Positions 12,578 to 22,543 of a DNA stretch of 64,000 bases are shown here, in pieces. Both the position numbers and the translations under genes were made by a program. Where the stretch lies: contig JBKDZI010000025.1 of the NCBI GenBank assembly GCA_047971215.1, positions 8,704-72,703 on the forward strand, in the 5' to 3' direction. The notes beneath the pieces were generated by a model. The model was given only the letters and a program-made list of their open reading frames with translations. It had not been told where the DNA came from and made no database searches. Positions within the stretch are counted from its first letter, which is position 1. Each line of letters opens with the position of its first letter. The stretch is from Bacilli bacterium. Its GTDB lineage: Bacteria; Bacillota_I; Bacilli_A; RF39; JBKDZI01.

Positions 12578-12721
12578 TAAAAACTTTTAAGCTACAAAAA
12601 ATCTAATATTTAATGTTATAAATGAACTAACTAGAGAAAATTTGCCTATTTTTGTTAATCATGCTGTAACTGTAATAAATAATTATTCTTTAGACAAACC
12701 TAAAAAAATTAAATAATCTAA

Positions 12722-12752
12722 AAACCTCATTTGTAAAAAATGAGGTTTTTTA
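12722..12752. terminator. Bidirectional rho-independent terminator between xfp and the bacteriocin operon
   Basis: The perfect hairpin aaaacctcat-ttgtaaaaa-atgaggtttt has A/T runs on both sides. Confidence 0.65.
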
Positions 12753-12758
12753 TATAAT

Positions 12759-12911
12759 TTAAGACTGATATTTACACACTTTTTCATTATATGAGTAACG
12801 CATATAAGTTCCTGTATATGTTCCTATATCATATAGAATAGAAATTGCAATTAAAGCTATTGGTATAAAAATAATAGGAAGAAATTTTTTATAACCTTCT
12901 ATATTTTGCAT
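12759..12911 (-). CDS. Small membrane protein, candidate bacteriocin immunity protein
   Basis: The 50-aa frame MQNIEGYKKFLPIIFIPIALIAISILYDIGTYTGTY... carries one TM helix. Its start overlaps the last codons of the upstream GG-leader peptide gene. It ends immediately before the terminator. Confidence 0.35.
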   Translation of the reverse strand: MQNIEGYKKFLPIIFIPIALIAISILYDIGTYTGTYMRYSYNEKVCKYQS

Positions 12912-13066
12912 AGTTTTTTTGCACTTACAAATCTAATCGCTGAACCAAGACCACGTCCAACTTCATAAATTTTGCCTATTCCTCTAATTAACGCATTTAA
13001 CATAGTACCTGATATTCCAGCACCACCATTTATTTGTTTTAATTCATAAGTTGTATATTCAACCAT
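12899..13066 (-). CDS. Double-glycine-leader bacteriocin precursor (class II-like)
   Basis: The 55-aa frame is MVEYTTYELKQINGG | AGISGTMLNALIRGIGKIYEVGRGLGSAIRFVSAKKLCKI. The leader carries the E-L-x-x-I-x-G-G consensus. A strong AAAAAGGAGGAAAA RBS lies 7 nt upstream. It is located immediately downstream of a C39-peptidase ABC exporter. Confidence 0.6.
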   Translation of the reverse strand: MVEYTTYELKQINGGAGISGTMLNALIRGIGKIYEVGRGLGSAIRFVSAKKLCKI

Positions 13067-13078
13067 TTTTCCTCCTTT

Positions 13079-13238
13079 TTAATTATTACATTTATTTGGG
13101 TTTGTATATCCTGAAAATACACCAATTAAAAATATTACTATACCGGAAATAATTATTGCACCACCAGCAGAAATACCACCACCATTAACGTTTAATAGCT
13201 CATTTTTATTTAATTCTCTCTTTTTAAACTCCTTTCAT
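13079..13238 (-). pseudogene. Second double-glycine-leader peptide gene with an apparent 1-nt frameshift at the start codon
   Basis: The frame ...KEFKKRELNKNELLNVNGGG | ISAGGAIIISGIVIFLIGVFSGYTNPNKCNN has a classic GG leader and a hydrophobic core. The only ATG (13236..13238, preceded by no better site) is offset by one nucleotide from this frame (ATG AAA G|GAG TTT). It is either a frameshifted gene or a sequencing error. Confidence 0.4.
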
Positions 13239-13336
13239 AAAATTTATTAAATGATTTATAATAAAATCATCATCTTTATTAAAATTTAAATAAATTACAT
13301 TATTCTCATGTTTTTGATTTTTATTTAGTTTAAATT

Positions 13337-13666
13337 TTAATAATATTTTTTATAATTAATACCTTGTTCATCTATATATAAATTTTCGTCAATACTATCA
13401 ATATAATAACTTAGTTTTTTTCCATTAATATATACTTTATTGTCTTTTGTAATATACTCTATATCCTTTGAATTTGTAATAACACTAACTATATAATCGT
13501 TTCCACTTTTTTCTACTATTGCATATGTTTTATAAAATGTTTGATACTTGACTTTAAATAAAGTACATATAAATATTAAGCTAATTAATACTATAAAAAT
13601 AGAGTAAAAGTATAATTTATTTGTTTTTTCATTAAAGTCAATTTCATTTATCATTATAATCTCCAA
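13337..13666 (-). CDS. Small single-TM protein, possibly a truncated HlyD/ComB-like bacteriocin secretion accessory protein
   Basis: The 109-aa protein has an N-terminal TM helix followed by a beta-rich segment. Its position between the ABC exporter and the peptides matches the ComB/LcnD slot, but it is far too short for an intact accessory protein. Confidence 0.3.
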   Translation of the reverse strand: MEIIMINEIDFNEKTNKLYFYSIFIVLISLIFICTLFKVKYQTFYKTYAIVEKSGNDYIVSVITNSKDIEYITKDNKVYINGKKLSYYIDSIDENLYIDEQGINYKKYY

Positions 13667-14435
13667 AATCTAAACATTCATTAAATAGATCACTATTATT
13701 ACTTCTATGAGAAACAATAAGTATAGTCTTATCTTTAAATTCTTTAAATATAAATTTAAGAATTTTTCTTTCTAATTTTATGTCAATTTCACTCAAAGCT
13801 TCATCAATTATTAGAATATCAAAATTTTTATAAATACTTCTAGCAAGTATTATTCTTTGTTTTTCACCACCTGATAAATTAAATCCATTTTCTTCTATTA
13901 ACATATTTAAACCCAAATTAGATTTGTCATAAATTGTATTAATGTCAAATTTTTCACAAATATTAATAACTTTTTCTAAATCTTTTTCTTCATCAATAGA
14001 AATATTATTATAAATTGTATCATTAAACAAAAGCTCATTTTGTGAAACATATCTAATATTTGATCTAATACAATTAATACTATAATTATTTAAATCTATA
14101 TCATCTATAAATATTTTGTTATTATCAACTTCATAAAATTTGCACAATAATTTTAAAAATGTACTTTTGCCACTTCCAGAATTACCCTTGATTAAAACTT
14201 TAGACCCTGATTTAATATTTAAATTTAGATTTTTTAAAATTGGATTGTGAATATGGGAAAAATTTAAATTGTTAACCTTTATATTTCCTATTAGATTTTT
14301 ATTTATTTTATTTTCATCACTCATAGATTCATTTTTTATAGAATATACTTCATTAATTCTTTTAAATGAAATATCATATTTTTTATAAATTAAATTAAAA
14401 TCTATTATATGTTTAATCGGATCAATTAAATGCAT
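13644..14435 (-). CDS. ABC transporter ATP-binding domain, the C-terminal part of a split bacteriocin-processing exporter
   Basis: Walker A is GNSGSGKST, the ABC signature is LSGGEKQR, and Walker B is ILIIDEA. It overlaps the upstream TMD ORF by 10 nt in a different frame. Confidence 0.7.
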   Translation of the reverse strand: MHLIDPIKHIIDFNLIYKKYDISFKRINEVYSIKNESMSDENKINKNLIGNIKVNNLNFSHIHNPILKNLNLNIKSGSKVLIKGNSGSGKSTFLKLLCKFYEVDNNKIFIDDIDLNNYSINCIRSNIRYVSQNELLFNDTIYNNISIDEEKDLEKVINICEKFDINTIYDKSNLGLNMLIEENGFNLSGGEKQRIILARSIYKNFDILIIDEALSEIDIKLERKILKFIFKEFKDKTILIVSHRSNNSDLFNECLDFGDYNDK

Positions 14436-15709
14436 AATAATATAATTAACACTAAATCACCTAAAGTAAATTTATTTTTCAAAATAAGTAAACTTCCTAA
14501 GAAAATTAAAATATAAATAATAAAATTTTCTATAAATGATTTAATCAAATTTATAAATGAAATTTTTTTTGAAAAATTTAGAGATTTATTTGTGAAATTA
14601 CTATATAAAAAATTAAATTTATTATTTAAGTTTTTTTCTATATTCATACCTTTTATAGTATCAAAAGAGTTTATACTTTCAATAATATTACTACTTGTCT
14701 TTTCTTCTAAAGTTATAAGATTATAATATTTTTTATATAGACGATTATTAGAAATTAAAGTAAATATTATATAAAAACTAAGTATTATAATTACAATTAT
14801 TAAAAGCAAACTACTTAAAAAATAGAATATACATAAACTACCAATTAATAGAATTAAATCTACAGAAAAGGTTACTATTAATGTAAGTATTGTATCTTTT
14901 AAAACTGAAATATCACGAATTCTTTCTACAAATTCTCCTGCAGTTTTGCTTTTAAAATAATTGTATGGGAGAGTAATAATATGATTATAAATACTAAGCA
15001 TTAATCTTAAGTTAATTTTTTCACCTAAAATTACAAGAAGTCTATATCTTATAAATTCAGTTATACTTTTTAAAATAATAACAACTAAAAATAAAATAGA
15101 TATATTGACTATATTTTCTAAATAACTATTTTGAATATTATCCATAATATATTTCAAATAATAAGTATTTAAAATACTAAAAAATGTAAAAATTATTGAA
15201 ATTATCACTATTAAAAATATAAATGGCTTATATTGAAAGATCAAATCAAATAAAAATTTAGATGTACTTGTTTCATCAATTTTAATTAATTTTTGGGAAA
15301 CATCTATTAAAATTAAAACTTCATTATATATTTTTCTAAATTCATCTAATTTATACTTAATCATACCTTTAGCTGGATCCATAATTTCAATATATTTCTT
15401 ATTAATTTTATAAATTACAACAAAATGCTTATAAGATTTATCAATTGTTACATTAGCAATAGAAGGAAGTTTATGTTTTTCATTTACTAATTGTTCAAAA
15501 GAACATTTATATCCTATAGAATTAATATTAAGTTTTTTTAATGTATTTACAATATCAAAAGCAGTAGTACCATGTTTATTAGTATTTGTCATAAGTTTTA
15601 ACTGAGCAGAGGGATAATTTCCATTATAATATCTTAAAACAGATAAAATACAACTGACTCCACAATCTTTATATTCCTTTTGAAGTACTACATGTTTTTT
15701 CATTTTCAT
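14426..15709 (-). CDS. Peptidase C39 domain plus ABC transmembrane domain, the N-terminal part of a split ComA/LagD-type bacteriocin exporter
   Basis: The N-terminus QKEYKDCGVSCILSVLRYY carries the C39 catalytic Cys motif. About 6 TM helices follow. It would be fused to the NBD in an intact exporter. Confidence 0.7.
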   Translation of the reverse strand: MKMKKHVVLQKEYKDCGVSCILSVLRYYNGNYPSAQLKLMTNTNKHGTTAFDIVNTLKKLNINSIGYKCSFEQLVNEKHKLPSIANVTIDKSYKHFVVIYKINKKYIEIMDPAKGMIKYKLDEFRKIYNEVLILIDVSQKLIKIDETSTSKFLFDLIFQYKPFIFLIVIISIIFTFFSILNTYYLKYIMDNIQNSYLENIVNISILFLVVIILKSITEFIRYRLLVILGEKINLRLMLSIYNHIITLPYNYFKSKTAGEFVERIRDISVLKDTILTLIVTFSVDLILLIGSLCIFYFLSSLLLIIVIIILSFYIIFTLISNNRLYKKYYNLITLEEKTSSNIIESINSFDTIKGMNIEKNLNNKFNFLYSNFTNKSLNFSKKISFINLIKSFIENFIIYILIFLGSLLILKNKFTLGDLVLIILLCI

Positions 15710-15778
15710 TACCTCCTATGTATATTCTACATAAAAGATTTAAAAATCCCTTTAAAAAAAACACTTTTTTCAAAGTGC

Positions 15779-20673: not shown

Positions 20674-22543
20674 TCACATTCTACGCTTATTACTTTGTTC
20701 TTCATAAAAATTAGAATCATTATCTGCCATTTGATTTTGCTGTTCTAATTCCATTCTTTTTTGAACTTCTAGTAAATCAAGTTTAGCAGTCTTTAATAGT
20801 TCGATTTCTTGATTAACAACTTTAGATGGTAAAACCTTTTGAGAAGTATCAGATATAATTTTGCTTGTTTCTTGCTGTTGAAGTGGAAGTAATCTTACTT
20901 GTGATGATATTACATCAAAGCATTTATCATGCTCAAAAAAGGGGATATCTATATATAAATCATTATCACTTTCTCTTACTTTCGCCCCAGATTTTTTAGC
21001 TTCTTTAATTATAGCCTTTTGTATTTCACAAGGAATATTATTCTTAGAAAAAGAAAAATATCCACCATTAGTATCGTGTCCTGCACAGGCTCCAGTAGAA
21101 GTTAATCCTCTTTGAGCAAAACTACTCAATAGGTTTTCAAGAGAAGGTAAATCCTCTGAAAATTCTCGTATTGCTAGTTGTCTTTCATTTTCATCTAATT
21201 TACTTATATCTACATTTGGCTTTCCCTTTGCATAAGAATTTTTCTCATACCTACTTGAAAAGTCAAGCCTGTCTGTAATTTGAGAAGCATCAATTTGAGA
21301 AACAATTTTTATCTCATCTTTAGTTGCAACAATATAATTATTCTCGGTAGTTTGACAGATAAATTCACCATTTTTTGTTTTATGGATATTTTCAAAGCCA
21401 ATATCTGAATGAACTGTTTGTTCTTTATCGCCCCATTGAAAAGTTATATCATGCAATTTCGGGGCAAAACTAGGATCGGAGAGTGGAATTGAATAATTTT
21501 CAATGTGTTCAATAGTGCTTGGAAGTGTCAGTTTTTCTAGAGTAGGTGTAAACATAAGTGCAAATTGTTCTAATTGTAAAACTCCACTAGGAACTCTTAA
21601 ACTTTTTATTCCTCTGCACTTTTTCTTTTTGCATATCAATTTGACATATAGCATTTGTGTTTACCATTCCTAAATCTATACTAACAGCTTTACCGCTTGT
21701 GGATTTAATAATCGTTTGGGAATTCTGAAATGATATTTCAGCAAAATCTCCCCTACGAATTTGAAAAGTATATGGAATACCATTATGCGTCTTTTTAATG
21801 GTTAAAATACTATTTTCCTGTGCTTCAAAAACTCCATTTGATCCATCATATTTGCTATTACCTCTTTTACTACTGCCTGAGCGAGCTTCCAGTGATGTTT
21901 GAAATGGCACTTTAAAACTATCTGGCAATTCTACATATTCTAAACCATTTAGATTACGAAAAGCATTATTTCCAGATTTTTCGACTCCTTCATGTAATAT
22001 TAAAGTCTTTATATTCTTACATTGATTTATAAAATTAGATGGTAATTCTTTTATTGAACCAGCTACTTCAACACGAATTAAATTTGTATCGTGCGATGCA
22101 TACATATTACCTAAAGATTTGATATTATTTCCAAGTACGAGATTTTGAACTTCTGGATACATACCAGTTCCTAAATATTCAATAGTGACAGGTAAATTAT
22201 ATTGTGTTCTTGTTGAGTCAAGAGAATTATTTCCTAAAGTTTTAATACCATTAGGTAATGTTACTTTTTTTAGATTAGAGAAAGCCGCTTCGAAAGTAAA
22301 ATATCCATCTGGAATTTTTGTTATACTTCCATCTCCAAAATTTATTTCAGTTGCTCCAGACATACCCGCCAAAGCTTTGTTAGCAATCATATTAAGGTTC
22401 GGATCAAGCTGCTTAACTTCTTTTGGAATATTATAAACTTGTAATCCTTTAGGAACATCAACTAACATTCCAGTCAATTGATCTATAATATATCCATTAA
22501 TATCTTTTAATTGTTGTTTTGGTTTTCTATCAAATATTCCCAT
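20674..22543 (-). pseudogene. BspA-type leucine-rich-repeat surface-like protein, split into two overlapping ORFs (21587..22543 and 20674..21654)
   Basis: The upstream ORF carries LRR_5-like repeats (NIKSLGNxxF...LxxVxLPxSIxxIG pattern). The two ORFs overlap by 68 nt in different frames, consistent with a frameshift in a T-rich stretch. Confidence 0.4.

Follow-up and report, generated by a model that had tools for sequence, protein, structure and literature searches.

Two-peptide (class IIb) bacteriocins are encoded by adjacent genes whose products carry double-glycine (GG) leaders of 15-30 residues and GxxxG motifs; the operon also contains an immunity gene and is served by a dedicated ATP-binding cassette (ABC) transporter and an accessory protein, the lactococcin G operon lagA-lagB-lagC-lagD-lagE being an example (PMC2850506). 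In the pneumococcal blp locus, a frameshifted blpA gives rise to non-secreting strains that keep immunity, known as 'cheaters' (PMC3171984). Here we describe a locus of comparable architecture on the minus strand (15709-12720) of a 64,000-nt stretch, called the window below, from the 75,971-bp contig JBKDZI010000025.1 (positions 8,704 to 72,703; assembly GCA_047971215.1) of a Bacilli bacterium assigned to RF39. We judge it quite likely that this is a conserved cassette of five genes, for an exporter, an accessory protein, peptides A and B, and an immunity-like protein, and that the copy in the window was inactivated recently. Three lesions lie within 1.3 kb: a frameshift in the exporter gene, a frameshift in the accessory gene, and the replacement of the peptide A start codon ATG by AAG; peptide B and the immunity-like gene are intact open reading frames (ORFs) in the window. 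An earlier note on this DNA had proposed a bacteriocin operon with a decayed exporter and one decayed peptide. All ORFs named there are present at the coordinates given on the minus strand, and both decayed components are indeed broken; however, the peptide lesion is not a frameshift, and the accessory gene is broken as well, which makes a third lesion.

The cassette recurs in many genomes. Related loci were taken from species-representative genomes, one per species, a scan of which supplied 80 more loci (L005-L084); hidden Markov models (HMMs) of the family were built from 80 related loci, and components were counted in the 71 loci with at least 1300 nt downstream of the exporter. Sorting of small ORFs by regular expressions undercounted peptide B and the third gene, and the HMMs were used in its place. 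Peptides A and B, in that order, were found in 70 of the 71 loci, the accessory gene in 63, and the third gene, C, in 50. The gene order in homologous cassettes is exporter, accessory protein (about 134-149 aa), hydrophobic GG peptide A (about 45 aa), cationic GG peptide B (about 55 aa), and a transmembrane (TM) protein C (about 55-62 aa) overlapping the end of B. The GxxxG motif, for which the earlier note had suggested a search, is carried by all 80 family A peptides and by 79 of the 80 B peptides; exactly one cysteine near the C-terminus is found in 72 A and 73 B peptides of the same sets. The hosts are metagenome-assembled genomes (MAGs), nearly all labelled Bacilli, Mollicutes, Tenericutes, Erysipelotrichaceae, or Bacillota, and a few under other labels such as Muribaculaceae or Clostridia; to judge by the sample names, the sources include the gut of humans, rabbits, goats, and mice. 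One locus, L003, contains an intact cassette at the window's own genomic position (engB-engA-spoVIF-exporter), and its EngA is 61% identical to that of the window. In many listed loci, rpsU (S21) and a yqeY-like gene follow the cassette; in the window and L003 the cassette comes after engB-engA-spoVIF. The exporter-accessory-A-B-immunity cassette is widespread and conserved in at least 70 species of uncultured gut Bacilli, so far unnamed and largely unannotated. The A peptides end in a conserved C-terminal motif, DG(Y/F)xRPLKC or SGYTNPNKC, for which a text search yielded no relevant paper, and the IIBacFinder paper does not mention the cassette host lineages.

As the family HMMs match the window pieces at E 1e-10 to 1e-26, the features of the cluster are not due to chance. 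They are as follows, in the order of transcription.

14426..15709, minus strand: 5' part of the exporter gene, C39 peptidase and six-helix ABC membrane domain (TMD); stop codon TAA at 14428-14426.
14430..14452, minus strand: exporter frameshift site, net loss of 1 nt within TTAATTATATTATTATGCAT, located by three-frame translation.
13644..14435, minus strand: 3' part of the exporter gene in another frame, ATP-binding domain (NBD); Pfam ABC_tran, E 2.8e-27.
13337..13666, minus strand: N-terminal fragment of the accessory gene, TM helix and most of the beta domain; family HMM 61.2 bits.
13224..13349, minus strand: C-terminal fragment of the accessory gene in another frame, ILLKFKLNKNQKHENNVIYLNFNKDDDFIINHLINFMKGV, stop codon TAA at 13226-13224; from frame translation.
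13079..13222, minus strand: peptide A remnant, leader (K)RELNKNELLNVNGG, mature part GISAGGAIIISGIVIFLIGVFSGYTNPNKCNN; family HMM 72.8 bits.
12899..13066, minus strand: peptide B, intact, 55 aa, leader MVEYTTYELKQINGG; family HMM 65.9 bits.
12759..12911, minus strand: third gene C, immunity-like 50-aa single-TM protein; family HMM 35.0 bits, E 2.9e-10.
12720..12750, both strands: bidirectional intrinsic-terminator hairpin at the end of the operon; stem of 13 bp, loop of 5 nt, and a T-rich tail on either strand.

Profile coverage and alignments show that the two exporter ORFs are adjoining halves of one gene, interrupted by a frameshift after TM6 and before the NBD, rather than two unrelated genes; the split into TMD and NBD described in the earlier note is thereby borne out. 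The probable start of the first ORF is its second ATG (15703), which is supported by a Shine-Dalgarno (SD) sequence and gives a protein of 425 aa, the same as in the NCBI annotation. This ORF matches Pfam Peptidase_C39 (E 1.4e-32) and ABC_membrane (E 2.5e-28) and spans positions 2-415 of the 673 of profile NF045998 and positions 3-416 of the 708 of TIGR01193; the NBD ORF takes up both profiles almost where the first leaves off, at positions 421-662 and 424-671, respectively. A motif of the C39 active-site type (QxxxxxDCG) is found in the first ORF, with H95 and D111 invariant in the alignment, and the NBD translation shows Walker A, the signature LSGGEKQR, Walker B, and the H-loop. When the frame is repaired, the junction ...LGDLVLIILLMHLIDPIK... 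aligns to 20 full-length homologues with a gap of one residue, and the fusion (...LGDLVLIILL-MHLIDPIK...) aligns as one stretch both to PCAT1 (4RY2, E 1.8e-99) and to ComA (8HF7, E 2.4e-76), residues 2-669 being covered in each case. Among the matches listed in the homologue search, the 119 that remain once the window's own fragment of 425 aa is set aside are each a single protein of 657-710 aa, with 33-43% identity, and the exporter is one open frame in all 83 related loci. A variable-gap DNA pattern drawn across the junction found no allele in JGI metagenomes.

The window gene thus shares with PCAT1 and ComA the three-domain architecture and the active-site-type and ATPase motifs, and differs from them in being split. 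NF045998 (the Mbov_0121 family) is the best NCBIfam match of the C39-containing ORF; however, its 204.1 bits and the 148.2 bits of the NBD ORF miss the cutoff of 500 even as a sum, and the corresponding 187.8 and 163.3 bits against TIGR01193 miss the cutoff of 523.85. Neither family's threshold, defined for a single polypeptide, is reached, yet the architecture and motifs match, which points to a divergent, broken member. Mbov_0121 has reportedly been named once each in a comparative-genomics and a secretome study. All 47 invariant columns of the exporter alignment are kept in the window, along with the ATPase motifs and the motif of the C39 active-site type, and the break therefore looks recent.

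The second frameshift affects the accessory gene. The earlier note had correctly placed an ORF of 109 aa with a single TM helix; this is, however, not a whole gene, and comparison with its homologues marks it as the N-terminal three quarters of a conserved accessory protein of about 145 aa. The likely start is the ATG at 13654, which overlaps the NBD stop codon and gives 105 aa. An exhaustive HMMER search found 11 proteins at E<=0.001, one of them being the window's own 105-aa protein; the other 10 are 127-153 aa long, and the window query ends near residue 105-110 of these. The frame was probably shifted at a run of six A (13351-13346), right where the C-terminal frame begins. The accessory HMM matches this second-frame segment taken alone (E 2.4e-5), the repaired protein of 143 aa aligns end to end with the homologues, and the repair raises the family HMM score from 61.2 to 88.2 bits. 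In an AlphaFold2 model of the accessory protein (predicted local distance difference test score, pLDDT, 85), an N-terminal TM helix is followed by a beta domain and a C-terminal helix; the frameshift costs the last strand and the last helix, about 38 residues. The accessory proteins of the cassettes match NF045999 (the MAG1140 family) across nearly all of its 126 positions, although weakly and below the cutoff of 35 (best score 25.1 bits, E 1.6e-5). The protein may be a one-domain relative of membrane-fusion proteins. A literature search found no paper mentioning MAG1140.

The third lesion is of a different kind. The open frame of peptide A (...KRELNKNELLNVNGGG..., 13082-13234) contains no ATG, GTG, or TTG. 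In a codon alignment anchored on the GG site, 13 of 16 homologues have ATG at codon -15, after a conserved SD sequence; the window has AAG there (13222-13220), 6 nt past the SD sequence AAAGGAG (13235-13229). The alignment thus identifies the defect as a start-codon substitution, ATG to AAG. The earlier note had described the ATG of this peptide as being 1 nt out of frame; that ATG (13238-13236) turns out to be a methionine codon of the accessory gene, within its C-terminal ...NFMKGV and in frame with it, while the ATG of the homologues aligns to the window's AAG, and the reading of peptide A as frameshifted was rejected. We also considered genetic code 4 (TGA read as Trp) as a way of extending the peptide A frame; it was discarded, as TAA stops lie just upstream and TGA ends the NBD at the position where the aligned homologues end. 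In the NCBI annotation, peptide B (ACK5HL_02800) and the accessory fragment (ACK5HL_02810) have consecutive protein accessions, from which it follows that tag 02805 has no protein; this tag is probably peptide A, called as a pseudogene.

Apart from its start, peptide A shows no decay, since its mature end SGYTNPNKC is a normal subfamily variant, present in several other species. The mature peptide has about 31 aa, a net charge of about +1, and two GxxxG motifs, at mature positions 1 and 19. Against TIGR03949, the lactobin A/cerein 7B family (cutoff 21.5), it scores 29.5 bits when the N-terminus is restored as MKEFKK... and 29.3 bits when M is put at the AAG position. The match spans both the leader and the glycine-rich hydrophobic stretch, two features that the earlier note had pointed out. 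In the A family, TIGR03949 is matched at E<=0.01 by 40 of 43 members; two of the three members scored individually are under the cutoff. The likeness to lactobin A and cerein 7B is thus one to the family profile; peptide B has no match to this model.

Peptide B has an intact frame, with GGAGG 5 nt upstream of its ATG; its mature part comprises 40 aa, has a net charge of +6, and contains GxxxG (GRGLG) at position 22 and one C-terminal cysteine, so that the mature region of about 40 aa and the excellent ribosome-binding site described in the earlier note stand. No significant match to it was found in Pfam, NCBIfam, or the PDB. A search with the single sequence found only the peptide itself, and relatives appeared when a profile was made from the fetched homologous loci: this family profile retrieved 342 clusters of relatives of 51-71 aa, without a Pfam domain and, where named at all, called 'hypothetical protein'. 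Compared with the PDB, the A and B profiles gave nothing significant, the best being leader-only matches to CtA peptide and carnobacteriocin B2 (E 0.2-0.5).

The third gene begins within the peptide B gene and shares with its 3' end 13 nt, among them the stop codon; the overlap, noticed already in the earlier note, recurs in homologous loci according to an ORF scan. The exact 50-aa sequence is not present in the protein collection. The third-gene family, with members for instance at L004:7748-7924 and L008:6808-6972, is homologous to mature B (hhalign probability 94%, E 1.1e-7), with which it shares the motif G..xG[ST]x[ILV]R...C, and this homology suggests an immunity protein derived from the toxin peptide. 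The operon ends, as had been proposed, at a hairpin terminator with a 13-bp stem (12720-12750); the sequence has two terminator-like sites, where shuffled sequences would lead one to expect 0.2.

How far does the locus conform to the described two-peptide systems? Two adjacent peptide genes lie on the same strand; the leaders of A ((M>K)RELNKNELLNVNGG) and B (MVEYTTYELKQINGG) have 15 residues each, and both peptides contain GxxxG; a C39-ABC exporter gene and an accessory gene, both frameshifted in the window, are immediately upstream; and the 50-aa single-TM ORF overlapping B, a small membrane protein whose family is found in 50 of the 71 loci, is immunity-like by its position. Together with the conserved A-B pair and the score of peptide A above the TIGR03949 cutoff, these features support the class IIb-like assignment made in the earlier note. 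To lactococcin G, which the note had named for comparison, the likeness is limited to weak matches of the leader that stay below the cutoffs. The window's peptide B obtains 14.7 bits (E 0.026) against the lactococcin G alpha/beta models (NF038035, NF038034; cutoff 37), and the matches of its homologues lie in the leader alone.

Several traits set the cassette apart from class IIb systems such as lactococcin G. First, the gene order is exporter-accessory-A-B-immunity. Second, the accessory protein has about 145 aa, with one TM helix and one beta domain, whereas classical bacteriocin accessory proteins have about 450 aa. Third, the peptides keep a single C-terminal cysteine, and the immunity-like protein is homologous to B. 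Finally, three of the five genes are broken in the window copy. To our knowledge, no intermolecular disulfide has been described in class IIb pairs. It is tempting to regard the family as a distinct two-peptide type, with A and B joined by a disulfide, a B paralogue acting as decoy immunity, and export through a one-domain mini-adaptor, but we consider this speculative and rather unlikely.

Pheromones, ComC and BlpC among them, likewise make use of GG leaders and C39-ABC exporters, and peptides A and B might accordingly be exported signalling or physiological peptides, for example a quorum pheromone pair leaving through a ComA-like exporter. Weak, sub-threshold leader matches to the BlpC, ComC, and EntF models agree with this, as does the conservation of the cassette in at least 70 species, usually amid housekeeping genes, which is atypical for bacteriocin islands. 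However, no pheromone model is matched at its cutoff, while the class IIb model TIGR03949 is; the mature peptides, of 31-40 aa, are of membrane type with conserved GxxxG; and the end of the second peptide is overlapped by a small TM gene in the manner of immunity genes. Nor is a histidine kinase or response regulator gene found next to the window's cassette or among the genes called around those of L002-L004, and none is apparent by eye among ten upstream neighbours. With no significant match to a GG-leader pheromone family, the case that the earlier note had named as speaking against a bacteriocin, we regard signalling as highly improbable.

An intact cassette would presumably work as follows. 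The two pre-peptides would bear GG leaders, as the family architecture implies; the C39 domain of the ABC exporter (PCAT type) would cleave the leaders during ATP-driven export, assisted by a small membrane-anchored adaptor with a beta domain like that of membrane-fusion proteins. Once exported, the two peptides, A being hydrophobic and B cationic and amphipathic, may attack target membranes jointly via GxxxG helix-helix contacts, and the small TM protein encoded just downstream would protect the producer. Because of the three lesions, the window strain is most likely able neither to make nor to export this putative two-peptide toxin; no second C39 exporter and no further GG peptide are present in the window.

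This conclusion depends on the lesions being real. The assembly is a MAG of an uncultured organism. Each frameshift alters the length of an A/T-rich low-complexity run by a single base, and such runs are prone to sequencing errors; in addition, every catalytic motif and every invariant exporter column is kept. The locus might thus be intact in the organism and the lesions be sequencing or consensus errors. Against this, a Logan contig that was assembled separately (run SRR30067258) has the same sequence as the window over 8281 nt, without gaps through all three sites, its 6 mismatches being all at the contig's end, outside the cluster. Moreover, the peptide A defect is a base substitution, and ORFs of 682-1001 aa are intact elsewhere in the window, so that three errors within 1.3 kb, with none evident elsewhere, would be oddly distributed. 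On the strength of the identical Logan assembly, the substitution, and the long intact ORFs, the three lesions are probably real, and we see little likelihood in the error explanation.

If the lesions are real, the cassette could still function in a reduced form, with a two-polypeptide exporter whose NBD is made by re-initiation, a dispensable accessory protein, B as a one-peptide bacteriocin, and the 50-aa protein as its immunity. The exporter is split in the linker after TM6 with a loss of at most one residue, many ABC systems have their TMD and NBD on separate chains, and peptide B has an intact ORF with a strong SD sequence. However, the exporter is split in none of the 83 related loci, no SD sequence precedes the NBD ATG, the joint occurrence of A and B in 70 of the 71 loci indicates that they work as a unit, and decay accounts better than adaptation for three independent lesions in a single operon. 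We find such a reduced system improbable.

Some weight nevertheless has to be granted to observations that run counter to a decayed bacteriocin operon. Besides the origin of the sequence from a MAG and the nature of the two indel sites, the Logan contig may share the same reads, in which case a systematic read error would go undetected, although an artefact of the assembler is excluded. The NBD ATG (14435-14433) sits 7 nt upstream of the TMD stop, a placement that could conceivably permit termination-reinitiation and hence a two-polypeptide exporter. The accessory gene is absent from 8 of the 71 related loci and may therefore be dispensable. Finally, we infer the bacteriocin function of the whole family from sequence, and the conservation of the cassette is unusually high for a bacteriocin locus.

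The interpretation that we favour remains recent decay of a producer operon. The decay is probably recent, given the invariant exporter columns that are kept and the normal end of peptide A. The window most likely presents a producer locus that was recently pseudogenised while its immunity-like gene was kept, as in the blpA 'cheaters'; what is left would be either an immunity-only 'cheater' state or simply early decay. As in the blp locus, the exporter gene is frameshifted into smaller ORFs, and in the window intact peptide B and the immunity-like gene remain. Unlike in the window, the blp phenotype was tested, the mutation there is a conserved repeat polymorphism, and immunity is induced by a pheromone; the window represents one genome, with no regulatory genes and two further lesions.

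The GC content is 17-21% in the cluster (13000-15500) and about 25-32% in its flanks, which may reflect either membrane-protein composition or foreign origin. A weak hairpin with a T-run (CACTTT-gaaa-AAAGTG-T8) follows spoVIF at 15710-15778, and the stretch from spoVIF to the exporter yielded no convincing sigma-70 promoter; the cassette could be transcribed either from its own promoter or by read-through from upstream. Two other regions of the window deserve mention. The segment 5866-9966 is an uncharacterised three-gene block: its first gene encodes 682 aa with a SMEK domain at the N-terminus (PF21941, E 3e-25), and ORFs of 438 and 230 aa, neither with a Pfam match, follow. At 20674-22543 the minus strand carries a pair of ORFs (326 and 318 aa) that share 68 nt. 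The upstream ORF has BspA-type leucine-rich repeats, and the pair could represent either two genes or a single gene for a surface protein that a frameshift has divided.

For the window genome, the analysis amounts mainly to a correction of annotation: four pieces, called separately or not called at all, belong in our interpretation to one decayed bacteriocin operon, whose three pseudogenising lesions can each be located to within a few bases. Systems of this kind are well known, and the broken state is ordinary biology. The wider value lies at the level of the family, a conserved cassette whose cationic partner peptide and immunity-like protein have no Pfam or NCBIfam model. The cassette could be a common weapon among gut bacteria that are hard to culture and a source of new peptide pairs, and its broken copy suggests producer/cheater dynamics like those of the pneumococcal blp loci.

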